From assembly GCA_963676565.1 (NCBI GenBank), contig OY781089.1, positions 1,408,001 to 1,472,000 of the forward strand: a stretch of DNA of 64,000 nucleotides, read 5' to 3'. The notes beneath the pieces are model-generated. The model saw only the letters and a program-made list of their open reading frames with translations, was not told the DNA's origin and made no database searches. This DNA is from Halarcobacter sp. (lineage in GTDB: Bacteria; Campylobacterota; Campylobacteria; Campylobacterales; Arcobacteraceae). Positions 11,876 to 64,000 of this stretch are shown here, piece by piece (position 1 is the first letter of the stretch; each line of letters opens with the position of its first letter). A program made the position numbers and the translations under genes.

Positions 11876-11928
11876 CATATTGTAATTTTATTGCAAAATG
11901 AAATTTATTGTGATAAAATTGCAATATG
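11876..11928 (+). promoter_or_regulatory. Putative native (leaderless) dinB promoter bracketed by a 15-bp inverted repeat
   Basis: Extended -10 TGnTAAAAT at 11911-11919 with ATG 6 nt later and no Shine-Dalgarno; CATATTGTAATTTTA (11876-11890) is inverted to TAAAATTGCAATATG (11914-11928) with 1 mismatch. Confidence 0.55.
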
Positions 11929-11958
11929 TTTATCCATATTGATATTGATTGTTTTTTT
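11926..11958 (+). repeat. attL: 33-bp direct repeat
   Basis: ATGTTTATCCATATTGATATTGATTGTTTTTTT, identical to 63968-64000. Confidence 0.93.
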
Positions 11959-12003
11959 ATTTTTCTTGAAAACTCACTAAAATTCAAAAAATCTAATAGA
12001 TAG
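11926..12003 (+). pseudogene. dinB: Displaced 5' stub of dinB fused to element sequence
   Basis: MFIHIDIDCFF then IFLENSLKFKKSNR-stop; the first 11 aa match the Y-family polymerase motif I. Confidence 0.7.
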
Positions 12004-12077
12004 CCTAAAATAGGAGCTTTAAACTTATATTAATAACTCATGATGTATCATTGTATATCAGTGAAACTCATTTTTAT

Positions 12078-12107
12078 TACGGTATCAATTGCGGTACTAA
12101 AAGGTAT
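12078..12107 (+). promoter_or_regulatory. Putative integrase arm-type binding sites (left)
   Basis: CGGTA at 12080 and 12092 (12-bp period) plus AGGTA at 12102; the same motif and period occur at 63901/63913. Confidence 0.55.
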
Positions 12108-12111
12108 ATAA

Positions 12112-13374
12112 ATGGCAAAACTAGTTAAACAGTTAACAGATACAGAAATAAAGAAAGCAAAGTATACAAGTAAAGAAGATTTTGAAAAATTAAAAAAATT
12201 AAATTCCAATGTATTGAGAAAAAATAAACTATCTGATGGTAAAGGTTTGTTTTTAATTTTAAAATCAAATGGAACAAAATTTTGGCAGTTTGATTTTTCA
12301 TTTGGTGGAAAAAGAAGGAGTATGTCTTTTGGTTCTTACCCTACAGTATCACTTAAAGAAGCTAGGGATAAAAGAGAAGATGCTCGAAATAATATTCAAA
12401 ATAATATTAATCCAATTAATCAAAAAAAAGAAGATAAAGAAAATCAAAAACTTATATTTGAAAATATCGCAGAAAAATGGATAAATAATACTGCAAATTT
12501 ATCTGATGAAACGAGATTAAATTATAAAAGAAGTTTAGATAAAAATGTAAACCCTTTAATTGGGAAATTAGAGGTTCACAATATAAAAAGAAAACATATT
12601 GTTAATGTGCTTATATCACTTCAAGATAGAACCACCGTTGCAAGTAGAATTTACAATCTTTTACAAAGAATCTTTTCTTATTCTGCAATTAATTATGATT
12701 TAGAATATAATCCAGTTGATTTTAATTTAAATGATTTAATAACAAGAAAAAAAATTTCACATCATAAAGCAATAATAAATGAAGATAAGATAAAAGAGTT
12801 AATTAGTGATATAAAAAACTTAAGTGTTGAAAATAGGGATTATCTTCATTACAGTGGAGTGTATGCTCTTAAAATGTTACCTTATATGTTTGTAAGGATT
12901 ACTTCTCTCTTAAAATCTAAATGGGATGATATAGATTTTGAAAATGAAACGTGGCTCTTTCCTGCGAAAAATACAAAAACAAAAGAGGACTATCTCTACC
13001 CTATGCCTAAGCAAATTATTGATTTGCTTATGGATTTAAATGAAGACACAATAATTAAAAGTGAATATGTTTTTCACTCTGCTCAAAATAATCCAATGAA
13101 ATATTTAAGTAGGGCTACAGTTTCAAATTATCTAAAGCAAGTACTTGGTTATGATGGAGAAATGACTCTTCATGGCTTTAGAAGTACATTTTCCACAACA
13201 ACGAATAGAAAAAAAGGTGAACATGGCTATAGTGAAGATATAATTGAAGCTTGTCTATCTCATTCTGAAAGAAATAGGGTGAAAAAAGCTTATGATAGGG
13301 AGTATATTGATAAATATATAGATGAAAAACGCCAATTAATTCAGTGGTATGCTGATTATTTGGATAAACAATAA
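12112..13374 (+). CDS. Tyrosine recombinase/integrase, P4-like with N-terminal arm-binding domain
   Basis: LTDTEIK..KLSDGKGLFL..GSYPTVSLKEAR arm domain; catalytic R (FVRIT), K (NTKT), HGFR, LSH, KAY. Confidence 0.93.
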   Translation: MAKLVKQLTDTEIKKAKYTSKEDFEKLKKLNSNVLRKNKLSDGKGLFLILKSNGTKFWQFDFSFGGKRRSMSFGSYPTVSLKEARDKREDARNNIQNNINPINQKKEDKENQKLIFENIAEKWINNTANLSDETRLNYKRSLDKNVNPLIGKLEVHNIKRKHIVNVLISLQDRTTVASRIYNLLQRIFSYSAINYDLEYNPVDFNLNDLITRKKISHHKAIINEDKIKELISDIKNLSVENRDYLHYSGVYALKMLPYMFVRITSLLKSKWDDIDFENETWLFPAKNTKTKEDYLYPMPKQIIDLLMDLNEDTIIKSEYVFHSAQNNPMKYLSRATVSNYLKQVLGYDGEMTLHGFRSTFSTTTNRKKGEHGYSEDIIEACLSHSERNRVKKAYDREYIDKYIDEKRQLIQWYADYLDKQ

Positions 13375-13413
13375 TACTTATATATTACTAAAGTGATTCA
13401 AATAAGTATATTT

Positions 13414-13440
13414 TAGAAAATCGCTTAAGGCGATTTTCTA
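13414..13440. terminator. Bidirectional intrinsic terminator
   Basis: TAGAAAATCGC-TTAAG-GCGATTTTCTA, perfect 11-bp stem between the convergent int and HTH genes. Confidence 0.75.
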
Positions 13441-13641
13441 GGATTCTCTCTTTTCCCCTAGTTTTTCTAATAATTCTGCAAAAAGTTCTAATTTTTTATC
13501 ATCAATATTATTTAAATGTGCTCTAGCACCTAATTTAAGGACTTTTAGTAGTTCAGGGTTTGACTGCTTATACCCTTTTATTGTTTGTTCATTCTTCCCA
13601 ATTATTTGACCAATTTCAGCATATGTTATTTTTTTTGCCAT
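13438..13641 (-). CDS. Small helix-turn-helix protein (putative repressor)
   Basis: ITYAEIGQIIGKNEQTIKGY HTH pattern; AAGGA RBS; divergent from the AlpA-like gene. Confidence 0.7.
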   Translation of the reverse strand: MAKKITYAEIGQIIGKNEQTIKGYKQSNPELLKVLKLGARAHLNNIDDKKLELFAELLEKLGEKRES

Positions 13642-13661
13642 AAGAATCCTTTATTAATATG

Positions 13662-13771
13662 AAGTATATATACTTTTTATTAAAAAAAGTATTAAAAAAA
13701 TATTTTTTAAGAATAAAATAAGATTTCATATGTAATACTTTTATTAACTAAAAGTATCTAATTAGATACTT
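13662..13771. promoter_or_regulatory. Palindromic operator candidates between the HTH and AlpA genes
   Basis: AAGTATATATACTT (13662-13675) and AAGTATCTAATTAGATACTT (13752-13771) are perfect palindromes sharing the AAGTAT half-site. Confidence 0.5.
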
Positions 13772-13889
13772 CTAATACTGATAATGGATGGAGAATAAAA
13801 TATTGTTTAAGAAAAAATTAATATTTAAAGATTAATATTTTTTTCATAATGAATCACCAAGATTCACAAAATAAAGAAAAGGATGTTAA

Positions 13890-14138
13890 ATGAGCGTAAT
13901 TAACCTTGATCCATCTTTAAGGCTAGAAAAACTTGAGGAAAAATTAGATATTTCAATCTCATCAATTTACCGAAGAATAAAAGACCAAACATTACCCGCT
14001 CCTATTAAACTAGGTAGATGCTCACTTTGGTCTGAGATAGAGGTCGATTTTGCTATCGAAAATAAAAGATTGATGACAAAAGATGAGAAAAAAACTGAAT
14101 TAGAGCGAAGAGAAAGATTGTATTACAGTATCAATTAA
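13890..14138 (+). CDS. AlpA-family regulator / probable excisionase (RDF)
   Basis: LRLEKLEEKLDISISSIYRRIKDQTLPAPIKLGRCSLW matches the AlpA winged-HTH pattern. Confidence 0.85.
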   Translation: MSVINLDPSLRLEKLEEKLDISISSIYRRIKDQTLPAPIKLGRCSLWSEIEVDFAIENKRLMTKDEKKTELERRERLYYSIN

Positions 14139-14197
14139 AAATTATATGCTAGATAAAAAGGATGTTTAATGATAATATTACAAAGTTTTAAAAAGTC

Positions 14198-14704
14198 ATG
14201 AATAAATATATTAATTGTTTTTTAAATATTGAAAAATTAAAACATCTATTAGATAATTCTTTTTATGAAGTAAAGAAGCCAACAATTTCTATAGAACAGT
14301 TAGACAAAGTTGATAATTACTATTTTGATAATATAGGAAAATTTGCTTCATTAATCAATAACGCTTACAGTTACAATGATTTAGAGTCGCTTCTTTTAGA
14401 TATTAACAATCAAATAAAAGAAAATAGACTTAATGCAAATAAGATGGATTTTAATAATATGTTTAATCCTGTTAAACTTATAAATAGAAAAATTGTAAGC
14501 TTGTCTTTATTTCACTATATGGAATTTAAAAATTCAAAAAAGATGATTGTGCTTATTTATATAAATAAAGAAACACCCCTAACAATAATTAGTGAGCAAT
14601 TGAATCTTTTTTATAGTTTGTTAGATGATAAAATCGATTTGATTTTAGATATAAAAACAGTTAAAAATAAAAAAGATGAGAGAGTAGAGTTTTTTTATTG
14701 TTAA
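14198..14704 (+). CDS. Hypothetical protein
   Basis: 168-aa ORF in the AlpA run; no motif recognised. Confidence 0.5.
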   Translation: MNKYINCFLNIEKLKHLLDNSFYEVKKPTISIEQLDKVDNYYFDNIGKFASLINNAYSYNDLESLLLDINNQIKENRLNANKMDFNNMFNPVKLINRKIVSLSLFHYMEFKNSKKMIVLIYINKETPLTIISEQLNLFYSLLDDKIDLILDIKTVKNKKDERVEFFYC

Positions 14705-14736
14705 AAAACTTATAAAGAAAAATACAGGAGATAAAA

Positions 14737-15588
14737 TTGAAAGTCGATTTCTTAAGTGATTTACATATAGATTTTTACTTTGACTCTAGACAGAAGATTA
14801 AAGATGAAAAGATAAAAAAACTATATCATCCAATTATTACAGAAAATGATAGAAAAATAGGTGATGTTCTTATTGTTGCAGGAGATATAGGACACTATAA
14901 TCATCAAAATATAAGAGTATTAAAATATTTAAAAGAACACTACTATAAATATATTATCTGTGTTCTTGGAAATCATGACTATTACTTATTTGATAAAGAT
15001 TCAAAAACACAGTTTAAAGACTCTTTTGAAAGAGTAGAACAAATGAGACTTAGAATTAATAGAGAAGAGAATATGTATTGTCTAAATGGTGACTTTGCAG
15101 AAATTGATGGAGTAATTTTTGGAGGTTGCGATTCATGGTACAATGATGGGTACTTTACAAGACAATATCCAACTCAGAATTTTCCTACAAAATCTACAAA
15201 TATACAATGGAAAAAAACAATGCATGATGGAGAGATGATTATAGGAGTAGAAAACTTTGATGATATCTGGCATATAGAAAAACCAAAAATAGAAGCAGTA
15301 TATGAACAATGTGATGTAATGATTACTCATATAAGTCCATCCTGTAAAGATGAACACTTTTCTCCAAGGTTTCAAAACTCTCCTTCTAATATATTTTTCT
15401 CTTTTGAAGGTGAAAAGTATTTAAAAGATGGTTCAATGAAATACTGGCTATTTGGACATACTCATGAAGAGTTAGAGTATGAAGAACATGGAGTACATTG
15501 TCTTTGTAATCCATTTGGATATCCAAGTGAGAGTGGTAATGGAGAATGGATTGTTATGCAAAGTTTTGAAATAGAAAAAAGAAATTAA
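14737..15588 (+). CDS. Metallophosphoesterase (calcineurin-like)
   Basis: SDLH, AGD, GNHD, TH, GHTH, NPFGY motifs; TTG start with AGGAG RBS. Confidence 0.9.
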   Translation: MKVDFLSDLHIDFYFDSRQKIKDEKIKKLYHPIITENDRKIGDVLIVAGDIGHYNHQNIRVLKYLKEHYYKYIICVLGNHDYYLFDKDSKTQFKDSFERVEQMRLRINREENMYCLNGDFAEIDGVIFGGCDSWYNDGYFTRQYPTQNFPTKSTNIQWKKTMHDGEMIIGVENFDDIWHIEKPKIEAVYEQCDVMITHISPSCKDEHFSPRFQNSPSNIFFSFEGEKYLKDGSMKYWLFGHTHEELEYEEHGVHCLCNPFGYPSESGNGEWIVMQSFEIEKRN

Positions 15589-15590
15589 TT

Positions 15591-15797
15591 ATGAAAGAAT
15601 TTAGTCCTATGTTGTTATTAACAGTCAATAACTCCATAGGAGATAAGAATAAGCATTTTACAGTAGAAGAACTAGTTAAGCTATTTGATAAAAAACAAAA
15701 AGATTTTACAAATAGAGATAAGTATGGAATAGAGGTAATACAAACAAAAGCAGATGCTTTTGAAATTGATGATTTTATAAAAGAGCATAAAATATAA
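15591..15797 (+). CDS. Hypothetical protein
   Basis: 68-aa ORF starting 2 nt after the upstream stop. Confidence 0.55.
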   Translation: MKEFSPMLLLTVNNSIGDKNKHFTVEELVKLFDKKQKDFTNRDKYGIEVIQTKADAFEIDDFIKEHKI

Positions 15798-15883
15798 AAA
15801 GAAAAAGTAGATTATATATTATCTTGTAAACCTTTCGATTAAAAAGAAATGTGTACTTTGTTAGATATCTTAAAAGGCTATAA

Positions 15884-16591
15884 ATGAGTGGAAAAATTTA
15901 TATTATAGGTGATGTTCATGGTTGTTATAAAACACTATGTGCTTTAATAAAGAGACTACCAAAAAATGCAAGAATATGTTTTGTAGGCGATTTATGTGAT
16001 AGAGGTAATAGCTCTAAAGAAGTAATAGAGTTTGTAAAATTAAATGATTATGACTGTGTTCTTGGTAATCATGAATCATTTTATATTGAAGGTGTTGAAA
16101 ATATTCTTGAAGCTTCAAGAATAGATGAAAATACAACATATTGGCTTAATAGGTGTGGTGGAGAAAAAACTATTGAGTCATACAAAAAAGATGGTATTTT
16201 AGATGAAATCACTTTAAAAGTACATCTTAATTGGATAAGCCAATTACCTTTATATAAAGAGTATAAAGACATCAAAACTGAAGATGGAAGATACTTAGTT
16301 GTTTCTCATTCTCATATTTATAATAAATGGGAATATAGAAATTCACATGAAAATAGTATTGAATATAGTGATTTTACAAATACAGTACTCTTTTCTCGAT
16401 ACAAAAACTGTGACAATGAAGAGATTTTTAATGTTTTTGGACATACTCCAACATCTACACCAATAATGGAAAAACATAAAGCTTCAATAGACTTAGGTTG
16501 TATTTATACTAATGATGAAAGTTTAGAAAATAGATTATGTGCATTGGAATTCCCAACCATGAAAGTAATTACTCAAGAAAATATTGAGTAA
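15884..16591 (+). CDS. Ser/Thr protein phosphatase-like metallophosphoesterase (PPP / lambda phosphatase type)
   Basis: GDVHG, GDLCDRG, GNHE, FGHTP, IDLG signature motifs. Confidence 0.9.
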   Translation: MSGKIYIIGDVHGCYKTLCALIKRLPKNARICFVGDLCDRGNSSKEVIEFVKLNDYDCVLGNHESFYIEGVENILEASRIDENTTYWLNRCGGEKTIESYKKDGILDEITLKVHLNWISQLPLYKEYKDIKTEDGRYLVVSHSHIYNKWEYRNSHENSIEYSDFTNTVLFSRYKNCDNEEIFNVFGHTPTSTPIMEKHKASIDLGCIYTNDESLENRLCALEFPTMKVITQENIE

Positions 16592-16713
16592 TTAAAATAA
16601 AGTTCTGATATAGATTGTAGCTCCTTCGCTTTTTATCTTTTAAAACTATAAATAAAAAGGAAGCCCAGTCAATAAAAATACCACTTAAATAACTGTTACA
16701 ATCAACATAGTTC

Positions 16714-17054
16714 TTTATTTGTTTGTGGTTAACAAATAAATCAAACAAGTTTTAAAGTTTATTAAACTTGTAGGTAGTTAATCAGAAATATAATTATATT
16801 GAATAATAGTTTCTTAGTCAATATAATCGTCAACTAATTTAATATCACCTCTGAACTTAAATTTTAAGTTCACTATCCAATCTAGTCTCGAAAAATATTG
16901 TCAATTGTGAAAGTGTTAAGTTCTAAGTCCACATTAGCATATTCCATTTTTTTGTAGCATTTTCATTACCATATAAAGCAATTTTAAAAGTGATTTTTGT
17001 TGTTCAAGAAGTCTTAAGGGTTTGAGAAAATCTCAAAATTCTACTTCTTGAACA
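16714..17054. repeat. Cluster of four inverted repeats/hairpins
   Basis: 16714-16740 (10-bp stem), 16745-16771 (8-bp), 16852-16872 (10-1-10), 17001-17054 (12-bp outer plus 7-bp inner stem). Confidence 0.7.
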
Positions 17055-17162
17055 CTTTTTGGAACAAATTATATCTCTAAAAAAAGGTTATTAAGCCAAT
17101 AAGTAAGATTTTCTAATTTTGTTTCAAAATTTATAGATTATGTAATTCCATAAGTCTTTTTA

Positions 17163-17291
17163 TTATTTTTTTGTACTTTTCGATGGCTTCAAACTTTTTG
17201 TATTACCTGGAGTACTTTTATTGTCTCTACGTCTTTGATCAGGTTTTCCAGTAGATTTTGCAATAGGTTTTGGTCCTGGTTTTAATCCCAT
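17163..17291 (-). CDS. 42-aa basic, Pro/Gly/Lys-rich peptide
   Basis: MGLKPGPKPIAKSTGKPDQRRRDNKSTPGNTKSLKPSKSTKK; perfect AGGAGG Shine-Dalgarno 9 nt upstream; 49 bp after the S8 peptidase stop. Confidence 0.7.
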   Translation of the reverse strand: MGLKPGPKPIAKSTGKPDQRRRDNKSTPGNTKSLKPSKSTKK

Positions 17292-17340
17292 AATATTTTA
17301 CCTCCTTTCAAAAAATTTTAAATAGTTAAGTATTAATAAA

Positions 17341-19563
17341 TTATTCAAATTCAATTTCTTCTTCTGCAATATTAAATATATCAATTCTTGTATCTATATC
17401 AATTTTATTAACTAACCAACCTCTTAATTGAGCGTTTTTAATGAATTCATCAATTCTATTAACTCCATTGATCTCTTTTAGAGTTATTACAATACCAAAT
17501 TTAAGATTTTCTCCATATTTATCTTCAAGTCGCTCTTTTGTTTTGAGACTTAATCCCCATAAAGGGTTATTATAAGCTTTCAACTCTCTATTTTTACCTG
17601 TAAAAATATCTCGTATATGTTTTACATTATCCCATTTTCTGAATAGTCTACGTGCATCTTCTTCCCAAGTCTGATGATTATATTCCTCTGTTTGATAATT
17701 TTTATTAATTGATTGAATATTACCTTTGTTATTTAATCTACCAAACTTTATATCAAGTTCTGTATTAGTATAGTCTACACCTTGGTTTCTCGAGGATGCT
17801 GGGAAATAACAAAGGGTTGCTTTTGCAATAAATGGATGCTTTTCTTGAACTACAGGAACTGGTATATTATAAGTATAAGTATCATATTTTTCAGAAGTAC
17901 CTTGTATTATAAATTGTATTTCATCAGATTTACAATATATAATATCATCTATTTTTTTTGGTACAACTCCATGCCCTATAAGTGTTGGATCATTCTGTTG
18001 TATGTCCCATCCTGTTGCAGAGTGAATAAGTAATGCCTTTGCAACATCTCTACTTAATCCTAATATATTAATCAAATATGATAATTTTCTAGAGATCCAT
18101 GGAGCTGCAAATGAAGTTCCTTTTACCAATGCTTCGCCATTTGGAGTACATACTTTCATTGGATTTTTTGAATCACCACCATAATAACTAATATCAGGCT
18201 TAATAAAAAACGATAATACAGGTCCTTTTCTACAATAAGAAGAAGGTTGATTATTTTTATCTACAGAATTTACTACTAATGAATTTATAGAATCTGCAGG
18301 TGCACCAATTGATCTAGTTATAGTTTCTCCAAAAGATAAATTTGTTCCAGCTATAACAAATATAACATCATTCTCAAATTGAATTTTATCCAAGATAGCT
18401 GCTTCAGGAGATATAAAATTAGGATTTATATTGAGTTTTGAACCTAAAGATAAATTCCAAACTTTTATATCTTTATTCGCAGCTACTATTTCACTAATAT
18501 TTCTTAATATGGTAAATGAGTTAAAACTGTTACCACTAGCTACACCGAAATGTCTAACTCTAAATCTACCACATCCATCATCCAGATCAGGATTAAAAGT
18601 TGGTCCATCTACAATTATAGAAGAAACTGCCGTACCATGCTCAAAATCATTTTGAGAAATAGGAATTTCACTTGACAACATATTTGTATACTCAACCCAT
18701 TCCGAGAAATATACATTTTCATCAAATAGTGTATCAATAACACCAATTATTGGCTCATTTTTTGGAGAATCAATTTTTATTATTCCATCATCAATAAATT
18801 CAAAATCATCTTTTGTTATTTCAGATAGATCACTAACTGCCATTGATATTAAGAAAGGAGCTTTTGTTTTTAAGATTTCTAATTCATCAGGTCGTAATAA
18901 AATAGTAGTTTCATCCATGATACGGCTAGAAAGTATATTAATCCCTATTTTTTCTAAAAGTTGTATGGTTTTTACATCTGTTTTATATATAGTAATAATC
19001 GCATTTTTTTCAAACATTGCATCTTCAATAGATATATCAAATTTTTCAACATAATATGCATCTACAATGACATTAAGAAAAATTGTTTTAAAAATTGTTT
19101 TATGATTATACGGAATCTTTTTTTTATTAACTTTATTGATTGTGTCATAGTCAATGTTTCCATTAAACTGCTGATTTAAAATATTAATACTATCTGTTAA
19201 TCTTTGTATTGATTCATTTAATATATCTCGTGATATATAATGTGTAATTATGTGCTTGGGAGAGGCATCAAGTGAAAACTTGGCACCTACTATGGAATTA
19301 TTAGGTTTATTAGAACTATTTCCTAAAAGAGCTTGTATTCTGTTACTTTTGGCTGCAACTTTAATATAATGTACTGAAACAAGTGCTCCAGGAAGTAAGT
19401 TTTGACTTTTCCAATACTCTTTAAGCTCTTTTAAGTTTTTTAGTAAATCTTGTAATTTTGATACATCTATAGATTGTCCAGCCGGTAAATTAGGAGCTCC
19501 AAATCCATCTGCTGATCTAGATGCTTGTTCAAATCTTCCTTTTAATTGTAATAAGTTATTCAA
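17341..19563 (-). CDS. ietS: S8 (subtilisin-like) peptidase, IetS-like
   Basis: Triad motifs GVIDT, HGTAVSS, GTSFAAP; WNLSLG; no signal peptide; directly downstream of an AAA ATPase. Confidence 0.82.
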   Translation of the reverse strand: MNNLLQLKGRFEQASRSADGFGAPNLPAGQSIDVSKLQDLLKNLKELKEYWKSQNLLPGALVSVHYIKVAAKSNRIQALLGNSSNKPNNSIVGAKFSLDASPKHIITHYISRDILNESIQRLTDSINILNQQFNGNIDYDTINKVNKKKIPYNHKTIFKTIFLNVIVDAYYVEKFDISIEDAMFEKNAIITIYKTDVKTIQLLEKIGINILSSRIMDETTILLRPDELEILKTKAPFLISMAVSDLSEITKDDFEFIDDGIIKIDSPKNEPIIGVIDTLFDENVYFSEWVEYTNMLSSEIPISQNDFEHGTAVSSIIVDGPTFNPDLDDGCGRFRVRHFGVASGNSFNSFTILRNISEIVAANKDIKVWNLSLGSKLNINPNFISPEAAILDKIQFENDVIFVIAGTNLSFGETITRSIGAPADSINSLVVNSVDKNNQPSSYCRKGPVLSFFIKPDISYYGGDSKNPMKVCTPNGEALVKGTSFAAPWISRKLSYLINILGLSRDVAKALLIHSATGWDIQQNDPTLIGHGVVPKKIDDIIYCKSDEIQFIIQGTSEKYDTYTYNIPVPVVQEKHPFIAKATLCYFPASSRNQGVDYTNTELDIKFGRLNNKGNIQSINKNYQTEEYNHQTWEEDARRLFRKWDNVKHIRDIFTGKNRELKAYNNPLWGLSLKTKERLEDKYGENLKFGIVITLKEINGVNRIDEFIKNAQLRGWLVNKIDIDTRIDIFNIAEEEIEFE

Positions 19564-19565
19564 TG

Positions 19566-56253: not shown

Positions 56254-56712
56254 ATGAATAATATATCGCGTCGAAATTTTATTTTATTATCTGGTCTTGG
56301 TATCCCATTATTCTTTAGTGCTTGTGAAAAAGAGAGTTCAGGAGAAATACAAGAAATTAAATGGGATAGAGATATGTGTGATAGATGCAAAATGGTAATT
56401 AGTGATAGAAAGCATGCTGCGCAAGTTATAAATATGAAGAATGGAAGAGTTTATAAGTTTGATGATATAGGCTGCGTTCCTTTATGGTTTAAAGAAGAAA
56501 ATATCACGTGGAAAGATAATGCAAAAATTTGGATTACAGATGTTGACACAGGAAAATGGATTGATGCAAGAAAAGCATTTTATGATGGTATGACTATAAC
56601 ACCAATGGGATATGGGTTTGCAGCTCATGAAACAAAAAAAGCAATAAAGCCTGACCTTGAAGTTTTTACTTTCAGTGATATGGAAAAAAGAGTTTTGGCT
56701 AGGGGACGATAA
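56254..56712 (+). CDS. nosL: NosL copper chaperone (twin-Arg lipoprotein)
   Basis: SRRNFI plus lipobox FSAC; CDRCKM, FDDIGC, WIDA, TPMGYG. Confidence 0.85.
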   Translation: MNNISRRNFILLSGLGIPLFFSACEKESSGEIQEIKWDRDMCDRCKMVISDRKHAAQVINMKNGRVYKFDDIGCVPLWFKEENITWKDNAKIWITDVDTGKWIDARKAFYDGMTITPMGYGFAAHETKKAIKPDLEVFTFSDMEKRVLARGR

Positions 56713-56713
56713 G

Positions 56714-57541
56714 GTGAAGAATTTATTACTAATAGCTTATTTAGATCTAAAAGAATCGATTAGAGCAAAATGGTTTATTGTTTATTCTCTTGTTTTTGGA
56801 GGAATGATAGCTTTATTTTTTGTAGCAGGTGTTACACAATCACAGGTTATGGGATTTAGTGGATTAAGTAGATTATTACTTATGTATATACAAGTTACAA
56901 TTGTAATTTTACCTATATTTATATTAATAACAACAGTACGGTCTATTTCTGGAGATAGAGATACTCATATTTTAGAATATATGTTATCTTTTCCAATTTC
57001 ATTAAAACAATATTATTGGGGTAAAATTTTAGGAAGATTTATTACAGTTTTTTTACCTGTATTTTTTGCAATGGTTTTTGCAATAATCTATGGAATCTTT
57101 ATCGGCGCTGATATCCCTTGGGATATATTTATTTTGTATACAGGTTTATTGTTTTCACTTACTTCAGCATTTTTAGGTATAGCATTTTTTATCTCTTCAT
57201 TTGTAAAAACAAGTGAAATTGCTTTAGGAATATCATTTTTTATATGGATATTTTTATTAGCCTTTTTAGATATTGCTTTAATCTCTTTAATGATGCAAAA
57301 TAGATTTGATGAGTCACTTATTATTACAATTGCTCTTTTAAATCCTATGGAGATTTTTAGAGTTGCAGCAATCTCTTTATTTGATCCATCCTTAACCGTA
57401 ATGGGACCAGTAGCATTTTATATTTTAGATACGTTTAAACAAACTACTTTTGTATTGATTTCTATAGCTTACCCAGTTATATTAGGATTAGTTTTTGCCT
57501 TTTTAGGTTATTTTATATTTGCGAAAAAAGATTTAGTTTAA
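56714..57541 (+). CDS. nosY: ABC transporter permease NosY
   Basis: GDRDTHILEYMLSFPIS, GKILGRF, LLNPMEIFR; GTG start at 56714 (ORF track starts at 56657). Confidence 0.9.
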   Translation: MKNLLLIAYLDLKESIRAKWFIVYSLVFGGMIALFFVAGVTQSQVMGFSGLSRLLLMYIQVTIVILPIFILITTVRSISGDRDTHILEYMLSFPISLKQYYWGKILGRFITVFLPVFFAMVFAIIYGIFIGADIPWDIFILYTGLLFSLTSAFLGIAFFISSFVKTSEIALGISFFIWIFLLAFLDIALISLMMQNRFDESLIITIALLNPMEIFRVAAISLFDPSLTVMGPVAFYILDTFKQTTFVLISIAYPVILGLVFAFLGYFIFAKKDLV

Positions 57542-57550
57542 AGGATATTC

Positions 57551-58039
57551 ATGAAAAAATTATCGACAATTATATTAAGTTGTATGTTTGGCTTTCTAGC
57601 TCTTAATGCAGAAGTTACGTACTCTATGAATTTTGACAAAGAAACAAAAAGTTTAGTTAGAAAAATGTATGTTTATAAAAATCCTGCTTGGGTTTCAAAG
57701 GTTGTAAATAAAGACTTTAAAGAACTTTATTTTGTAAGTCCTAAATCTATGTTTGAATTCTATTTCAATCCTGAAAAATGGGAAGAAGCTAATACCAAAG
57801 ATTCAACAGAATTAAAAGAACTTATTGTAACAGACTTTAAAACTCACAAAGTAATAAATGCTAGGGGTGCTTTTTATGTATATGGAAGTAATAAAATCTC
57901 ACCAGCAGGGGATGATTTACCAGCATTTGAAAGCTATGATGATGCCGAATCATTTGCAAAAAGTAATAATGGTAAAAGAATTTTTTCATTTAAAGAAATG
58001 AAAAAAGGTTTGATTGAATTATTAAATGGAGACATTTAA
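57551..58039 (+). CDS. NosL-like protein lacking the CxxC motif
   Basis: MYVYKNPAW, VTDF, INARGAFYVYGS, PAGDDLPAF; SLVRKM where CxxCxM is expected. Confidence 0.75.
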   Translation: MKKLSTIILSCMFGFLALNAEVTYSMNFDKETKSLVRKMYVYKNPAWVSKVVNKDFKELYFVSPKSMFEFYFNPEKWEEANTKDSTELKELIVTDFKTHKVINARGAFYVYGSNKISPAGDDLPAFESYDDAESFAKSNNGKRIFSFKEMKKGLIELLNGDI

Positions 58040-58067
58040 TAATTCATAAAGTTTTAAAGGAGTAATT

Positions 58068-58790
58068 ATGAAAAAATTGTTAATCATATTTGTAATGGGA
58101 TTATTGTTGTTTTCTTCATCCTCTTTTGCTAAAGATATGGAAAAAAAATTTAGTAAAGTTGCTTCAGGGAAACCTGAATTAATCCAAGAAGGTGCAGAAA
58201 AAGGTTTTTGTCCAGTATGTGCAATGTCTATTAAGCACAACTACAAAACGAGTCATGGAGTTGTTGCAAAAAAGGCTAAAGATAATAGACAATATTGTTC
58301 TGTACGATGTGTTCTTGTTGATGGGAAGCATGCAAATGAGGGGAATAAGCATGTTGTAGTAGATGCAAAAACTGAAAAAATTATCGATGCCAAAACGGCA
58401 TATTATGTATTAGGAAGTAAAGCACCTGGAACTATGTCAAAGATTAGTAAGTATGCATTTGCTTCAAAAGATGATGCTAAAGCTTTTAATTCTAAATTTG
58501 GTGGAAAAATTGTTTTATATGATGAAATGATAGCTAGTGCAAAAGAGTCGTTAAATAGTGATATTGCAATGGTAAATATGAAGAAAAATAAAATGATGTA
58601 CCCAATGGGCAAAAAACTTTATAAATCAAATTGTAGACCAATTAAAGATTTTTCTTCTTATAAAAGAATCAATGAGTTAAAAACTGACATTATGAAAAAT
58701 AAAATATGTGATGACTCAATTAAGATGAAAAAACTTCAAGCAGTGACTTTATATCTATGGGAAATTAAAAGATTAGGTAAATCTTTATAA
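58068..58790 (+). CDS. NosL-like protein with C-terminal helical extension
   Basis: Signal peptide; CPVCAM, QYCSVRC, IDAKTAYYVLGS, GTMS, FGG. Confidence 0.8.
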   Translation: MKKLLIIFVMGLLLFSSSSFAKDMEKKFSKVASGKPELIQEGAEKGFCPVCAMSIKHNYKTSHGVVAKKAKDNRQYCSVRCVLVDGKHANEGNKHVVVDAKTEKIIDAKTAYYVLGSKAPGTMSKISKYAFASKDDAKAFNSKFGGKIVLYDEMIASAKESLNSDIAMVNMKKNKMMYPMGKKLYKSNCRPIKDFSSYKRINELKTDIMKNKICDDSIKMKKLQAVTLYLWEIKRLGKSL

Positions 58791-58796
58791 AAAGTA

Positions 58797-58830
58797 AAAA
58801 AGAGATGTGTCTTACCTTCTCATCTCTTTT
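58797..58830 (+). terminator. Hairpin/terminator between nosL-like genes
   Basis: AAAAGAGATG...CATCTCTTTT stem. Confidence 0.5.
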
Positions 58831-58854
58831 ATCAGCATTTTGAGGAATACTATT

Positions 58855-59991
58855 ATGAAAAAACTATTACTAAGTGCCTTAATTATACAGTTTCTATTAA
58901 TAGGCGTGAGTCAAGGAAATAATTTTAATAAAACAGTTAAAAAAGATATAGAGCTTGTACAAAAAGAAGATATAAAAACTTGGTGTGCAGTTTCAGGTGA
59001 AGAACTTTATAAAAATTATAAAACTTCTCACACTGCCCATGACTATGATGGTAAACCAAGACAATATGCTTCCCTTAGTTATTTAGTTTTTGATGTAGAG
59101 GAAAACCATGTAAAGCTTCAAAATTCTAAAGTAGTAGATGTAAGTTCCAATAAATTAATTCCCACAAAAGATGCATATTATGTAATGGGGAGCAAAGTAA
59201 AAGGAACAAAAAGCAAGATAAGTAAACTTGCTTTTGCAAAAAAAGAAGATGCAAAGATATTTGTATCTAAAAATGGTGGTAATATTGTAAGTTTTGAAGA
59301 AGCTTTTGCAGAAGCAGAAAAGAGTTTAAAAGAAGATATGAAACCTTCAAATCCAAAAAAAATACAAAGAGAATATCGTAAAGGCAAAAAGATTTATGAG
59401 GCCAAATGTAGTAATAAAGAGATTGATTTAAAAGCCTATAATTGGATTAATTACTTAAAAGCAGATTTAAAAAATCAGTGTAAAAAACTTAAGGAAAATC
59501 AACTTCATTCTGTAGCCTTATATCTATGGAATGTTAAGCGTATTGAAAATAGACTAGTTAATAAAATAGTAGAAGTAAGAAAAGAGGATAAATGTCCAGT
59601 TTGTGGAATGTTTGTGTATAAATATCCAAAATGGGCAGCTAAACTAGAGTTTGTAAAACATGAGCATAAGCACTATTATGTTTTTGATGGGGTTAAAGAT
59701 ATGATTAAATTTGTTCATAATCCTAAAAAATATAATGAACACGAAAAGATGACCGAGCAAAAGCTGTTAGTAACAGATTATTATACTCAATATGCAATTG
59801 ATGGGAAAGAGGCTTTTTATGTAGTTGGGAGTGATACTTTAGGTCCTATGGGAAATGAATTAATACCTTTTAAATATGAAGAAGATGCAAAAATTTTTTT
59901 AAAAGATCATCAAGGAACTTCAATTTTTAAGTTTAGTGAAATTACTTCAGAATTAATATGTAAATTAGATGGCCTAGAAACATGCGAATAA
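58855..59991 (+). CDS. Two-domain NosL-like protein
   Basis: Degenerate first domain (CAVSGE, QYASL, AYYVMGS); second domain CPVCGM, FDGVKDM, VTDYY, GPMGNELIPF; start at 58855 after GAGGA. Confidence 0.82.
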   Translation: MKKLLLSALIIQFLLIGVSQGNNFNKTVKKDIELVQKEDIKTWCAVSGEELYKNYKTSHTAHDYDGKPRQYASLSYLVFDVEENHVKLQNSKVVDVSSNKLIPTKDAYYVMGSKVKGTKSKISKLAFAKKEDAKIFVSKNGGNIVSFEEAFAEAEKSLKEDMKPSNPKKIQREYRKGKKIYEAKCSNKEIDLKAYNWINYLKADLKNQCKKLKENQLHSVALYLWNVKRIENRLVNKIVEVRKEDKCPVCGMFVYKYPKWAAKLEFVKHEHKHYYVFDGVKDMIKFVHNPKKYNEHEKMTEQKLLVTDYYTQYAIDGKEAFYVVGSDTLGPMGNELIPFKYEEDAKIFLKDHQGTSIFKFSEITSELICKLDGLETCE

Positions 59992-60263
59992 GTTCAAAAA
60001 AAATTTTCTACTGTTTTGTTAGTGTAGTAATTGCTTCTTTAATATTTCAATTTGTGTTTTTATCCTCAAAAACACAAGACAATGAGACTAAAGTGCTTTT
60101 TGTCAAATTAAGTGGAATACCTGACTTAGCATTTAATAGTAATGTTCCATACCTAAGACACAGATCATTAAGTGTAGTGAATGATTTATATTTTTTACAT
60201 CCTGGAATTGAACCCCTTGGTCTTGGAATATTTATTCAACAAACTTCTTTACAAGTGAGGTAA
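59982..60263 (+). CDS. Small membrane-anchored hypothetical protein
   Basis: TM helix; GIPDLA..YLRHRSLS; overlaps the upstream gene and ends 1 nt before the permease start. Confidence 0.7.
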   Translation: MRISSKKIFYCFVSVVIASLIFQFVFLSSKTQDNETKVLFVKLSGIPDLAFNSNVPYLRHRSLSVVNDLYFLHPGIEPLGLGIFIQQTSLQVR

Positions 60264-60264
60264 T

Positions 60265-61434
60265 ATGAATACAATATTTGATTACACCTTACGTTCTTTA
60301 AAACGATTTGGGATGAAAAACATTTCTATAGCTTTAATTTTTATGATTTTAGTTTGGCTTTTATCTTCAGGAATGATGATTAGCCATTCTTTAAATCATG
60401 AACTAAAAACTCTGTCAAAAGGTCTACCTGATATAGTTATACAAAACTATAAAGGTGGAAAAGTAAAACCTTTTGATGAAGAAATTGTTGAGCAACTGTG
60501 GGATATTAAAGGAATAAGTAATGTAATGGGACGTATTTGGGGACAATACTACTTAGAAGATGCAAATATTTATGCCTCTATTGTAGGTGTTACTGCTTTT
60601 GAAGAACAGTATAAAAAAAGCCTAACAAAAATTGTAGAAGATTTCCCAGAAAGTGATGATGCTATTCCTTCAATGATGATATCAAAAAATCTAAAAGAGT
60701 TATTGTTTAAATATGATATGCAGGAGTATGTAAGCTTTAAGCAAAATGATGGAACTTATCTTAAAATGAAACTTGGCGGAACTTTCAAAGCAGATACCCA
60801 AATGGAAAGTAATGATATTATCTTAATTCCTACAGAAATTGCTAGAAACTTATTAGCTATTGAAGAGGGAAGTTTTACAGATGCAGTAATAAGTGTAGCT
60901 AATCCTGAAGAAGTAGAAACGATAGCAGCAAAAATTGCTTTTGAATATCCAAGTCTAAGGGTTATTACAAAAGCTGATATTATTAAGGGTCATCAAATTT
61001 TATATGATTATAAAAGTGGTTGGTTTTTAGCTTTACTTATTACTACATTTATTACCTTTGCAATTATACTTTATGATAAAGCAAGTGGACTTAGGAGTGA
61101 AGAAAAGCAAGAAATAGGTGTTTTGAAAGCTTTAGGTTGGGAAATTGATCATATTATTAGACATAAACTAACTGAAGCTTTAATACTTTCCCTTTCAGCT
61201 TTTTTTGTAGGTGTTAGTTTAGCAATCTTCTATGTTTTCATTTTAGATGCACCAATCTTAAAATATATATTTACTGGATTTTCTAATTTAAAACAACCTT
61301 TTGATTTAGTTTTTGTATTAGATATAAAAATGATTGCACTACTATTTTTTACAACTGTACCCCTTTATTTAGCAGCATCAATTATTCCATCTTGGAAAGC
61401 AGCAGTTGAAGATGCTGGAGAGGTAATAAGATGA
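60265..61434 (+). CDS. FtsX/MacB/LolE-type ABC permease
   Basis: TM1, large periplasmic domain, EKQEIGVLKALGW, ASIIPSWKAA. Confidence 0.88.
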   Translation: MNTIFDYTLRSLKRFGMKNISIALIFMILVWLLSSGMMISHSLNHELKTLSKGLPDIVIQNYKGGKVKPFDEEIVEQLWDIKGISNVMGRIWGQYYLEDANIYASIVGVTAFEEQYKKSLTKIVEDFPESDDAIPSMMISKNLKELLFKYDMQEYVSFKQNDGTYLKMKLGGTFKADTQMESNDIILIPTEIARNLLAIEEGSFTDAVISVANPEEVETIAAKIAFEYPSLRVITKADIIKGHQILYDYKSGWFLALLITTFITFAIILYDKASGLRSEEKQEIGVLKALGWEIDHIIRHKLTEALILSLSAFFVGVSLAIFYVFILDAPILKYIFTGFSNLKQPFDLVFVLDIKMIALLFFTTVPLYLAASIIPSWKAAVEDAGEVIR

Positions 61435-62090
61435 TTCAAGTTAAAAATGTTTCAAAAATATTTAATGAAGGAACACCAAAAGCTTTTAATGCTTTAGAAG
61501 ATATTTCATTACATGTAAAAAAAGGTGAAGTTGCATTACTTAAAGGAATTAGTGGTAGTGGGAAAAGTACTTTACTATCTTTGTTTGCAGCACTATATCA
61601 ACCATCAAAGGGAGAAATTTTAATTGATGGAGAAGCAATTTCCCAATATCCTGAAAATTTTGCAAGTAGATTTAGACGTAATAATATTGGATTTATCTTT
61701 CAAAAATTTAATTTGATTTCTACTCTAACAGTTCTTGAAAATGTACTTCTTCCAACTTTACCTGATGATATTGATAAACTTGAAGAGGCAATGGAACTTC
61801 TAGAGTTATTTCATATTTCGCCAAAAACGAATGTTGAAGTTAAACATCTTTCAGGTGGTGAACAACAAAGAGTTGCAGTTGTAAGGGCTCTTATTAATGA
61901 TCCAAAACTAATTCTCGCTGATGAGCCAACTGCAAATTTAGACCAAGCTCTAAGTATTAAGATATTAGATTATTTTGAAAAAATAATTAAGCAGGAAAAA
62001 ACACTTGTTATTGCAACCCATGATCCACTATTATTAGAATGGGGAATGTATGAGACTTGTTTTGAAATGAAAAATGGGAAATTATTATGA
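61431..62090 (+). CDS. LolD/MacB-type ABC ATPase
   Basis: GISGSGKST, IGFIFQKFNL, LSGGEQQRV, ADEPTANLD, ATHD. Confidence 0.92.
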   Translation: MIQVKNVSKIFNEGTPKAFNALEDISLHVKKGEVALLKGISGSGKSTLLSLFAALYQPSKGEILIDGEAISQYPENFASRFRRNNIGFIFQKFNLISTLTVLENVLLPTLPDDIDKLEEAMELLELFHISPKTNVEVKHLSGGEQQRVAVVRALINDPKLILADEPTANLDQALSIKILDYFEKIIKQEKTLVIATHDPLLLEWGMYETCFEMKNGKLL

Positions 62091-63046
62091 TTTTACTCTC
62101 TCCATATATTCAAAGTGTTTTGATTGTTGAATCTATAATTTTTCTTTTATGCTTAGTTGGACTCTTCTGGGCAGTTAAAATATCATTATATTTTAATCCA
62201 AAGTTAACAATTTCAAAGCAGTATAACCTTAATAAAAAGAGTTATTTAGTTGCTACAATTATAAAATTTGCTATAACTGTAAAGCTTCCACTTTTCTTGT
62301 TTTACATCTGGACTATGGATACCATTTCAGAAATAGTGCCAGGTGCAATGTGTGCAGCTGGAATTGTGAGTGCTACAAAGTTTGGACCAGAACTTTTAAT
62401 GATTAAAGTGTTGATTTTATTTGGTTTATTTGCTTGGTTATTACTTCACTCTCTTGATATTAATGAAGTAGATTATCCATATACGAAATTAAAGTTTATA
62501 ATATTTCAGCCTATTTGTATTCTAATAGGAATTGAGCTTTTTATGGAAGTTTATCATTTTATGCAAATAAGTACTGATGTTCCTGTTCACTGTTGTAGTG
62601 TTGTATTTGAACAAAGTTCTGCTGGAACTGCTTCTTTGATGCAAAATGAACCTTTACTATTAGTTCTATTTTACTCTATATTTATTGCAAGTTTAATATT
62701 TGGACTATTTAAAAAAGCGATATTATTTAGTATTTTTTCTCTTGCTTTTATGTTTGTAGGAATTCAAACTTTGATTAGGTTTTTTTCTTCTTATGTATAT
62801 GAACTACCTACGCATAAATGCCCTTTCTGTTTACTTCAAAGTGACTACTATTATGTGGGATATCTAATCTACATATTATTTTTTATAGGTGCTGCACTGG
62901 CCGTAAATGTATTTATTCTTTATTTATTAAAAAAAACACCAAAGAAAAGCTTTTACAAAATATCAATAATAGCAAATACTTTACTAGTAGTAATCTTGAG
63001 TCTCTATCCAATTATATACTATATAAAAAATGGTGTGTGGCTTTAA
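62087..63046 (+). CDS. Polytopic membrane protein with Cys/His clusters
   Basis: GAMCAAG, VHCCS, YELPTHKCPFCLL in loop regions. Confidence 0.75.
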   Translation: MILLSPYIQSVLIVESIIFLLCLVGLFWAVKISLYFNPKLTISKQYNLNKKSYLVATIIKFAITVKLPLFLFYIWTMDTISEIVPGAMCAAGIVSATKFGPELLMIKVLILFGLFAWLLLHSLDINEVDYPYTKLKFIIFQPICILIGIELFMEVYHFMQISTDVPVHCCSVVFEQSSAGTASLMQNEPLLLVLFYSIFIASLIFGLFKKAILFSIFSLAFMFVGIQTLIRFFSSYVYELPTHKCPFCLLQSDYYYVGYLIYILFFIGAALAVNVFILYLLKKTPKKSFYKISIIANTLLVVILSLYPIIYYIKNGVWL

Positions 63047-63056
63047 AGGGGAGATG

Positions 63057-63605
63057 ATGAAAAAAAACTTTTTATTACTTATATCTTTTATTTGTTTTTT
63101 GCAAACAATAAGTTTTGCACAGAATTTTCAGAAATATACAAAAAACATTAAGCTTTTACAGAAAGGGAAACATTCTGACATTTGTCCAGAGTGTGGAATG
63201 AAGCTATCAGTGTTTGGAAAAACAAATCACGCAGTTAAGCTTAAAAATGGAAAATATATTCAGTTTTGCTCAATAAGAGATTTAATTAAAGCTGAGAGGG
63301 AAAAAGGTTTCCCTATTGAACAATACTTAGCAGTAGATGCAAAAAATGAAATTTTTAAAGATGCTACAAAAATGTGGTACGTTGTAGGAAGTAGTATAAA
63401 AGGAACAATGTCGACTGTAAGTAAAATATCTTTCAGTGAGAAAAAAGATGCTATAGAATTTAAAAAAGAGTTTGGAGGAGAAGTTATGTCATTTATAAAA
63501 GCAAAAGAAATTTCAGAAAAAATTCTTGATAAAGATATGAAAGAAATAAATAGAAAAAATGCACTTAGTTCTAAATTTCATGGAAATATACATTTAAATT
63601 ATTAG
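63057..63605 (+). CDS. NosL-like protein
   Basis: Signal peptide; CPECGM, QFCSIRD, WYVVGS, GTMS, FGG; start after GGGGAG (ORF track starts at 63030). Confidence 0.8.
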   Translation: MKKNFLLLISFICFLQTISFAQNFQKYTKNIKLLQKGKHSDICPECGMKLSVFGKTNHAVKLKNGKYIQFCSIRDLIKAEREKGFPIEQYLAVDAKNEIFKDATKMWYVVGSSIKGTMSTVSKISFSEKKDAIEFKKEFGGEVMSFIKAKEISEKILDKDMKEINRKNALSSKFHGNIHLNY

Positions 63606-63898
63606 TTAAAGAGATTTATATTGATTTCTATAATTTTTTCTAAGAATAAGTTTATTTTTATATCATTAAAAAAAGGGGCTAAAATGATGATTGGCACCAT
63701 AAATCTTTTAAATGGTATTATTACATATGAAAATATTTTATTAAAAAACTATGGTGAAAAAAATAAAACTCTATACATATAATTAAAATGAATTGAAAAT
63801 TTAAATATTTAACTACAATATTAATATTGCAATTTGTAATATTTTTAATATTTACTCTTCGAAAAGTATATAATAACTACATATAAGGAAAATTTTTT

Positions 63899-63920
63899 AA
63901 CGGTACTTTATACGGTACAT
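63899..63920 (+). promoter_or_regulatory. Putative integrase arm-type binding sites (right)
   Basis: ACGGTAC twice with a 12-bp period (CGGTA at 63901 and 63913). Confidence 0.55.
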
Positions 63921-63967
63921 ATTAAAAAATAACTTTTAAAATCCTCATAAAATAGGAGTTTTTTTAA

Positions 63968-64000
63968 ATGTTTATCCATATTGATATTGATTGTTTTTTT
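63968..64000 (+). repeat. attR: 33-bp direct repeat (window ends here)
   Basis: Identical to 11926-11958. Confidence 0.93.
63968..64000 (+). CDS. dinB: DNA polymerase IV / Y-family polymerase, first 11 codons (partial)
   Basis: MFIHIDIDCFF matches Y-family motif I (hhHhDhDxFF); AGGAG RBS at 63954-63958; remainder lies outside the window. Confidence 0.7.
   Translation, partial: MFIHIDIDCFF

Follow-up and report, generated by a model that had tools for sequence, protein, structure and literature searches.

Attachment sites and boundaries of the island

The window analysed here is a stretch of 64,000 nucleotides from the chromosome of Halarcobacter sp. (G000:C1:1408001-1472000 of the host genome G000, in which reading past position 64000 was possible on the same contig), and it holds a candidate integrative island that carries genes for the reduction of nitric oxide (NO) and nitrous oxide (N2O) and that is bounded by two copies of the first codons of dinB, the gene of a Y-family DNA polymerase. 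The direct repeat ATGTTTATCCATATTGATATTGATTGTTTTTTT, exactly 33 bp long, was found at 11926-11958 and at 63968-64000, and no other copy was present when both strands of the single-contig 3.34-Mb genome (3,340,668 bases) were searched. The identity ends at both borders of the 33-mer; agreement upon extension to the right falls to 35 of 40 and 39 of 60 positions. An open reading frame (ORF) of 429 amino acids (MFIHIDIDCFF...) begins with the right copy, which supplies its start codon and first 11 codons; this ORF runs past the end of the window and shows the Pfam domains IMS, IMS_HHH and IMS_C, which are markers of Y-family polymerases. An earlier note on this DNA had described an exact 33-bp repeat at both ends, enclosing a P4-like integrase, AlpA, norEFCBDQ and a full clade II nos cluster, and had expected a Y-family polymerase beyond position 64000; all of this was confirmed, the gene content by Pfam and NCBIfam profiles. 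The features at the two ends, including the left and right attachment sites (attL and attR), are the following:

11860-11925, plus strand: native dinB promoter region with the conserved palindrome ATTTCATATTGTAATTTTATTGCAAAATGAAAT, cut off from dinB by the island
11926-11958, plus strand: attL, 33-bp copy of dinB codons 1-11, which opens a stub of 25 amino acids
11959-12111, plus strand: left arm with a candidate arm-type motif pair, ACGGTAT at 12079 and GCGGTAC at 12091, 12 nt apart
12112-13374, plus strand: P4/CP4-57-like tyrosine integrase, 420 amino acids, intact (Pfam Arm-DNA-bind_3, Phage_int_M and Phage_integrase)
13438-13641, minus strand: ORF of 67 amino acids, divergent to the AlpA gene, no Pfam match
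13890-14138, plus strand: AlpA-family protein (Pfam Phage_AlpA, 26.5 bits at a cut-off of 21)
63606-63967, plus strand: right arm with paired ACGGTAC (63900 and 63912) and, now upstream of dinB, a conserved stretch containing TATAAT
63968-64000, plus strand: attR, the 33-bp repeat as the start of intact dinB (429 amino acids, to window position 65257)

The motif RCGGTAY was matched five times in the 64 kb against 1.44 expected, and four of the five matches form two same-strand pairs with a spacing of 12 nt, just inside each end of the island. Matching pairs occur at both ends of a smaller island in genome G022 and before the integrase gene of genome G143 (both described below). These paired motifs are likely arm-type sites for the N-terminal domain of the integrase. 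No degenerate copy of the repeat (up to 9 mismatches) and no arm-like sequence was found within the island, so that one pair of ends bounds the 52 kb; a tandem or composite array was ruled out on the same ground. There is no tRNA gene in the window and no Rfam family in 11000-64000, and promoter scans at both island ends, including a promoter-like site at 63845-63874, did not rise above the shuffled expectation in this AT-rich DNA.

The palindrome of the native promoter region, at 11867-11909, is found upstream of dinB throughout the genus and consists of two ATTGCAAT boxes with the flanks ATTTCAT and ATGAAAT. A partial look-alike, ATATTGCAATTTGTAATAT, is located in the right arm of the island at about 63826. 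A regulon for the palindrome was considered and rejected, as the six sites found genome-wide at up to 3 mismatches were not connected to a coherent gene set.

An integrase clade specific for the start of dinB

The integrase gene starts 153 bp inside attL and the Pfam Phage_integrase match spans positions 3-166 of 172. Six positions (R262, K289, H354, R357, H384 and Y394) are invariant in the three orthologues that were found, and from the motif context we take these to be the catalytic residues (R-K-H-R-H-Y). The N-terminal domain of the integrase is similar to the arm-binding domains of CP4-like integrases with known structures (3ju0 and 3jtz). The AlpA homologue is likely the directionality (excision) factor, a role assigned from its family alone.

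Orthologues of the integrase, 58-60% identical and found at a threshold of E 1e-100 or better, are rare: 3 of the 184 genomes of the family contain one, the host genome included. A pattern scan of 185,579 species genomes returned the same two relatives, those of G022 and G143. In a scan of metagenomes 80 loci were kept, all of them at most 39% identical and many of them short, and none of these 80 has the dinB-start motif nearby. All three orthologues adjoin a 5' stub of dinB, and the integrase clade is thus specific for the start of dinB.

In G022 the integrase (59% identical, without its first ~70 residues) lies beside a native dinB promoter and a dinB stub, and a second copy of the 33-mer, with one mismatch to that of G000, starts the real dinB gene ~10.7 kb away. 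The G022 island (~10.7 kb, at about 5052-15730 of locus L033, G022:C77:96000-115000) carries a second tyrosine recombinase, a ThsB-TIR (Thoeris-like) protein, DUF4760 and several unknowns, and neither nor nor nos genes. In G143, which belongs to another genus of the family, the integrase is 60% identical and is preceded by the motif pair and a stub reading MKLHIDIDCF, on a contig too short to show the other end of the island.

Empty and filled sites

An alignment of the regions upstream of dinB identified seven loci in the genus that are free of an insertion (G007, G023, G016, G012, contig C3 of G002, G006 and G017), where the palindrome ATTTCATATTGCAATTTTATTGCAATATGAAAT and a TATAAT-like box lie just before the ATG. 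The region 11860-11925 of the window aligns with these seven and with the flank of attL in G022, and the DNA to the left of attL is of this native type in both G000 and G022. Another, mutually conserved arm precedes dinB at attR of G000 and in G022, G014, G010 and contig C19 of G002, and is not found at the empty sites. The G022 island has native-type codons in the attL stub and an island-type copy at attR, and therefore the attachment site of the element itself (attP) supplies the first codons of dinB.

Closer relatives were found among public runs by a word search with the left flank, and four of these (X1, X2, X16 and X17) were aligned to 9000-28999 of the window. The contigs of X16 (6,043 bases) and X2 (7,467 bases) are ~99% identical to the window, with 28 and 30 differences, respectively, in 2,959 aligned bases, and match it from 9000, through the histidine kinase gene, the H-NOX gene and the 33-mer, up to 11958, which is exactly the final base of the repeat. 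Past this position X16 continues for 2.9 kb and X2 for 4.3 kb without a match to the first 17 kb of the island. A second piece of X2 (6001-6041 of the record, 2,888 bp after the start of the 33-mer) matches 21623-21663 on the reverse strand, with 4 mismatches; this histidine-kinase motif, which has ~31 sites genome-wide, is located in G000 exactly 2,888 bp after the start of dinB, also with 4 mismatches. By this geometry the X2 contig reads H-NOX, promoter, dinB and downstream kinase, and therefore represents an empty site. The X16 contig has the same geometry and ends 2 bases after the expected position of the kinase motif. X1 and X17 hold the segment from the integrase to the Iet module (defence genes, see below) and nsrR-norQ at about 99-100%, and their contigs break at the 33-mer, in the way expected of a repeat longer than the word of the assembler. 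Near-identical strains thus differ by the presence or absence of the island as one block. The low summed depth of X16 over int, Iet and nsrR-norQ was not used, as missing cover is no evidence of absence.

The earlier note had proposed to look for an empty site in which the H-NOX gene is directly followed by dinB. Such a site is present in the X2 contig, as judged from its geometry, and the native promoter joined to dinB is present at the seven loci mentioned above; the expectation did not hold for other species, where an H-NOX orthologue (72%) was found in G008 and G005 only and is not followed by dinB. The H-NOX-dinB adjacency is specific to this species.

Exchange between relatives and other occupants of the locus

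In the related genome G014 the kinase gene is followed by ~70-80 unrelated bases, then by the counterpart of 27552-63725 of the window, the island-type arm and dinB. The nor-nos block (27552-63725) is 97.75% identical between G000 and G014 (24 bins of 1.5 kb, 95.9-99.5%), and the identity is 90.7% over 26 kb of left flank and 91.6-92.5% in the right flank (87.7-95.5% in the 27 bins of both flanks together). Even the lowest island bin lies above all 27 flank bins, and the nor-nos block has therefore been exchanged since the lineages of G000 and G014 split.

G010, which is as close as G014, has no nor or nos genes and retains a remnant of the island-type arm before dinB. The interval between the kinase gene and dinB is occupied in this genome by an 11.8-kb cluster (G010:C1:1447978-1459832, loci L044/L034) with genes for an acyl carrier protein, an aromatic ammonia-lyase, a short-chain dehydrogenase/reductase, an AMP-ligase and an acyltransferase, which has no match in G000 or in the 88 kb of G014. 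Possibly this cluster was carried by an island of the same family that has since decayed. A deletion shared by G010 and G014 was rejected, as the junctions after the stop codon of the kinase gene are unrelated. With no fewer than three different occupants besides an empty state, the kinase-dinB locus is a hotspot.

The assembly of G002, another species, contains pieces that are 99-100% identical to G000, namely contig C19 (44.7-66.9 kb in window coordinates, with dinB and 2.9 kb downstream) and a contig of 546 bp, and on contigs C19, C53 and C169 pieces that are 92-100% identical; it also has a dinB of its own, with an empty-type site. This assembly (3.9 Mb in 220 contigs, 3% contamination) holds the G000-identical pieces in a patchy manner; it probably includes an admixture of a G000-like strain and was not counted as evidence of recent transfer.

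Within the genus nosZ is common (14 of 25 genomes, 85-100% amino-acid identity), and an orthologous cNorB (at least 80% identity) is present in 8 of the 25, with a ~40% relative in five more. Nor or nos genes beside dinB were found among these 25 in G000, in G014 and on the C19 contig of G002 only. In G022 the nor and nos genes are located on two other contigs. In G003 a 25-kb supercluster of nos, regulators and nor, with almost the gene complement of the island's nor-nos part, lies between housekeeping genes for purine synthesis and includes DUF2249, the 410-amino-acid protein, the Fe-S protein, DUF2269 and FtsX/ABC/NosL; no integrase was found near it in the 73 kb examined. The cargo of the island looks like a genus-level NO/N2O module that was captured by the island, in agreement with its host-like composition. 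As a test of origin composition was set aside: the island is indistinguishable from the host, and a foreign origin is neither supported nor refuted by it.

Interpretation and alternative explanations

We consider the 52,042-bp segment to be an integrative genomic island that entered site-specifically within the first 11 codons of dinB by means of its P4/CP4-57-like integrase, and assign to this reading a probability of roughly 85%. The integrase encoded beside attL would have catalysed the recombination into these 11 codons, with the strand exchange probably in the T-run at the 3' end of the 33-mer, where the junctions of G000, G022 and G143 coincide. The attP site would carry its own dinB start and upstream arm, so that dinB would be rebuilt at attR behind island DNA, and the native palindromic promoter and the stub of 25 codons would stay behind at attL. 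The N-terminal domain of the integrase would bind the RCGGTAY pairs and AlpA would give directionality; recombination between attL and attR would then loop out one circle with the defence genes, nsrR-nor, the NO-stress genes, the pump, the regulators and nos. We infer present-day excision from the intact parts and from the presence or absence of the island among strains, and the route of transfer between cells, the position of the crossover and the physiological role are to be read in the same conditional sense. More tentatively, and somewhat short of calling it probable, we propose that a small P4-like integrase clade is dedicated to the first codons of dinB, where it exchanges the conserved palindromic promoter for island DNA, and that in salt-marsh Halarcobacter populations one of its members has captured the whole NO-to-N2 module and is still active, with the N2O sink, NO tolerance and control of the polymerase moving together.

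Several observations weigh against integration and continued mobility of the whole island. The sequence of X16 past 11958 is unread and that of X2 was identified by geometry alone. The cargo is mosaic, in that X16 has the PAS-kinase/solute-binding protein part (21617-25841, ~97%) without integrase, Iet or nsrR; some of the island cargo therefore also occurs apart from the island. The Pfam scan of 59 ORFs showed no relaxase, type IV secretion, replication or capsid genes, and transfer between cells therefore needs another agent. Neither an excised circle nor a restored attB (the empty chromosomal site) of this strain was found in assembled contigs, which cannot show rare events. G014 lacks 11300-27551, which comprises H-NOX, attL, the integrase and the whole left module, G010 retains the right-arm remnant only, and the integrase of G022 is truncated. 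About 240 bp short of the attR core the high identity between G000 and G014 comes to an end, and in the right arm it is no more than 93-94.5%; the nor-nos genes may therefore have moved between the two lineages by homologous recombination inside resident islands and not by integration, although the drop in identity near attR fits such recombination as well as re-integration.

Some of these points count in favour of the alternative that survives best, namely that the element is a fixed relic, integrated once and no longer able to excise, and that the pattern among genomes results from vertical descent, deletion and homologous recombination via the flanks or resident islands. By this explanation it would be expected that three of the four related elements are decayed (G014, G010 and G022, as just described), that transfer genes are missing, that the stretch of high identity with G014 does not extend to the attR core and that no excision product is seen in assembled contigs. 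The parts of the G000 element, however, are all intact (a 33/33 repeat, a full-length integrase with its catalytic residues, AlpA and both arm pairs), and the match of the empty-site contigs ends exactly at the last base of the repeat, as precise site-specific gain or loss predicts. We regard a relic as unlikely, albeit as an explanation that deserves serious consideration.

A second alternative is that nor-nos is an old chromosomal neighbour of dinB, that only a small integrase element is foreign and that the distant repeat is incidental. The nor-nos genes of G014 adjoin dinB without an integrase, G003 has a chromosomal nor-nos supercluster, and the composition of the island is not foreign but matches that of the host: its GC content is 26.9% against 28.4% (8th percentile of 52-kb windows) and its tetranucleotide distance is at the 78th percentile. 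Nevertheless, all 52 kb lie between the repeats without an att site inside, nothing separates H-NOX from dinB in the X2 contig, the nor-nos genes are 97.7% identical to those of G014 against ~91% for both flanks, and the arm upstream of dinB in G014 is of the island type and not the native promoter. Together these make an old neighbourhood very improbable.

Equally hard to maintain is the view that the element is a prophage, a phage satellite or an integrative and conjugative element (ICE). Such elements often carry P4-like integrases and AlpA, and the nearest phage integrases are 29-32% identical to that of the island, yet families of relaxases, coupling proteins, type IV secretion, capsids, terminases and primases are all missing from the 59 ORFs, a search of 50,697 phage records gave no DNA match to the left module, and in 72,556 plasmid records no counterpart of the backbone was found, the only match being one of 2 kb to accessory genes. 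That chance or faulty assembly produced the repeat, the latter an objection already raised in the earlier note, can be dismissed almost with certainty: no point in its support was found, the genome is a single contig in which the 33-mer is unique to two sites, the junction regions are reproduced in the independent assemblies G014, X1, X17 and G002-C19 (with X1 and X17 breaking at the 33-mer and holding the left part of the island), and G022 and G143 show the same architecture.

Gene content of the island and its flank

The genes of the left flank and of the island between the integrase module and the right arm are:

7528-11298 and 11310-11858, plus strand: left chromosomal flank, outside the island, with a hybrid histidine kinase gene (Pfam HATPase_c, HisKA, HAMP and Response_reg) and an H-NOX NO-sensor gene (Pfam HNOB)
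14198-16591, plus strand: protein of 168 amino acids without known family and two calcineurin-like metallophosphoesterases (Pfam Metallophos)
17341-19563, minus strand: IetS-like S8 peptidase (PADLOC IetS, 1e-65)
19566-20603, minus strand: IetA-like AAA ATPase (PADLOC IetA, 1.6e-44)
20977-25697, minus strand: multi-PAS histidine kinase (1307 amino acids) and family-3 solute-binding protein (Pfam)
25698-27620: non-coding gap of 1.9 kb between the 3' end of nsrR and the start of the solute-binding protein/PAS-kinase operon
27621-33469, minus strand: Rrf2/NsrR-like regulator, norQ, norD, norB, norC, norF-like (COX4_pro) and norE (COX3)
33599-38405, plus strand: NO-stress genes for DUF2249, a 410-amino-acid unknown, an Fe-S assembly protein, HPP, DUF2269, NnrS, YgbA and a cytochrome c
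38505-43719: RND efflux pump (AcrB, membrane fusion protein and outer membrane protein; Pfam)
43817-47887: two two-component systems (Pfam)
48092-63605, plus strand: nos cluster with NosZ, nosB, nosD, nosG, nosC1, nosC2, nosH, nosF, nosY, five NosL-domain proteins and an FtsX/ABC pair
48092-50689, plus strand, within the former: Sec-type (clade II) NosZ with C-terminal cytochrome c domain (TIGR04246, 866 bits at a cut-off of 625)

In the nor region the genes norE, norF, norC, norB, norD and norQ run from 33469 to 28139 on the minus strand. NorB aligns over its full length (residues 1-449, E 2.7e-202) with the NorB subunit of the cytochrome c-dependent NO reductase (cNOR) of P. aeruginosa (3o0r_B), and NorC, NorQ and NorD match the Pfam families Cytochrom_C, CbbQ_C and VWA, respectively. 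The nor genes are thus predicted to encode a cNOR (NorCB) and its accessories. The regulator before norQ scores above the NCBIfam cut-off for the Rrf2 superfamily and below that for NsrR. YgbA, among the adjacent NO-stress genes, is above the cut-off of NCBIfam NF007718. The stretch 33477-35449 (DUF2249, the 410-amino-acid unknown and the Fe-S gene) has 79.6% DNA identity to an 83-kb plasmid of Aliarcobacter butzleri (NZ_CP104333.1).

The profile matches in the nos cluster were TIGR04247 for NosD and the NapG and NapH families in NCBIfam, and NosL, ABC and FtsX in Pfam; nosB and nosC1 had no family match and take their names from position only. From these matches we predict a complete nos cluster of the clade II (Sec-dependent) type. 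Downstream of nosFY, at 56254-63605, we observed five NosL-domain proteins, one with two NosL domains, an FtsX-like permease with an ABC ATPase and two unknowns. An FtsX/ABC/NosL set resembling that of G000 also accompanies the supercluster of G003.

The left part of the island contains a candidate defence module. The pair at 17341-20603 matches IetS and IetA in PADLOC, and the NCBIfam scores are well below the cut-offs (IteS 157 bits at a cut-off of 900, IteA 120 bits at a cut-off of 510); by these scores it would be a relative of IetAS and no curated member. Of the two preceding metallophosphoesterases the first has a weak PADLOC match to PDC-S10 and the second has ApaH/PrpE-like matches below the cut-off. 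The multi-PAS kinase has no paralogue in G000. In the non-coding gap two tandem copies of ~191 bp (26048-26449) are 83-86% identical and single-copy elsewhere in the genome, and an inverted repeat of 152 nt (26554-26705 and 27096-27247, 93% complementary) encloses 390 nt, is single-copy and belongs to no Rfam family; it is conceivably a foldback element or a segment that can invert.

Outside the island, an HD-GYP-type response regulator, the hybrid histidine kinase and H-NOX (6468-11858) make up a signalling operon for NO sensing, which directly precedes the native dinB promoter; the linkage of the kinase to H-NOX is also found in G008. The adjacency of an NO-sensing operon and an NO-reducing island appears coincidental, because the left neighbours differ at the other two islands.

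The earlier note had presented the cargo as the terminal half of denitrification. Genes for the reduction of NO and of N2O are indeed present, and, as it had also stated, the element contains no NapA, NirS or NirK genes. A working chain did not emerge: in the host genome NapA is above the curated cut-off at 3.26 Mb and NrfA is located at 3.28 Mb, no NirK was found, and the NirS candidate is a weak 48-bit Cytochrom_D1 match in an ORF of 330 amino acids. With NapA and NrfA and no convincing NirS or NirK in the host, the cargo is therefore better not called the working second half of a denitrification chain. Judging from this gene complement, its role is most likely NO detoxification or respiration together with N2O respiration in a Nap/Nrf nitrate ammonifier, and the NO would come from outside or from side reactions. 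Elsewhere in the genome, two molybdopterin oxidoreductase genes (G000:C1:1974641-1977247 and 1980508-1983141) each contain one in-frame TGA and probably encode selenocysteine formate dehydrogenases.

Comparison with known systems

In islands and prophages that target dusA a tyrosine integrase is reported to insert at the 5' end of that gene (Farrugia et al. 2015, PMC4482086). The likeness lies in the use of one site in the 5' end of a conserved protein gene and in the varied cargo, and is one of mechanism only; the present island differs in its target, dinB, in its P4/CP4-57-type integrase with Arm-DNA-bind_3 and in the rarity of the clade (3 of 184 genomes of the family). The feature that places it among elements that target 5' ends is that attR consists of codons 1-11 of an intact dinB behind island DNA. 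The SXT/R391 elements integrate at the 5' end of prfC and supply a new promoter and start. Both these elements and the island thus supply the promoter and start of the target gene; SXT is self-transmissible, whereas the island is without conjugation genes. Islands of the P4/CP4-57 type are usually found at the 3' ends of tRNA or tmRNA genes. The island resembles these in the domain architecture of the integrase, the nearby AlpA, the arm-type sites and the defence cargo, and differs in having a polymerase gene as target, with no tRNA gene in the window.

We found no report of dinB as an attachment site, or of this island, in the literature searched, which covered few of the subscription journals. 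The island belongs to the class of elements that target and rebuild the 5' ends of genes, with dinB as a new target, and dinB joins the short list of protein genes of which the 5' end serves as attachment site. As the insertion replaces a dinB promoter that is conserved throughout the genus, the island may therefore change the regulation of a mutagenic polymerase. The reduction of N2O by NosZ is, to our knowledge, the only known biological sink of N2O, and whether a lineage carries nosZ is usually regarded as fixed. The island provides a testable case of gain and loss of an N2O sink at the strain level in a coastal genus of Campylobacterota. If the more tentative of our proposals is true, one recombination event would decide on N2O-sink capacity, on NO tolerance and on how an error-prone polymerase is controlled, all gained or lost together.

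With respect to the cargo, the closest parallel is the cNosZ cluster of the Wolinella succinogenes type, with the gene order nosZ-B-D-G-C1-C2-H-F-Y-L. The likeness comprises the Sec-type NosZ with a C-terminal cytochrome c, the NapG- and NapH-like NosG and NosH, NosC and NosD/F/Y/L, and extends to the host, as a W. succinogenes-type host and G000 alike have Nap and Nrf and are without NirS or NirK. Unlike the W. succinogenes cluster, that of the island has four extra NosL-domain genes and the FtsX/ABC pair, is linked to cNor and is part of an island bounded by an integrase. Mobile denitrification determinants are known from the conjugative element for nitrate respiration of Thermus and from plasmid-borne nos genes in rhizobia and Cupriavidus. 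In those organisms N-oxide respiration is carried on plasmids, megaplasmids and conjugative elements, whereas here nor and nos only are carried on a chromosomal island bounded by att sites.

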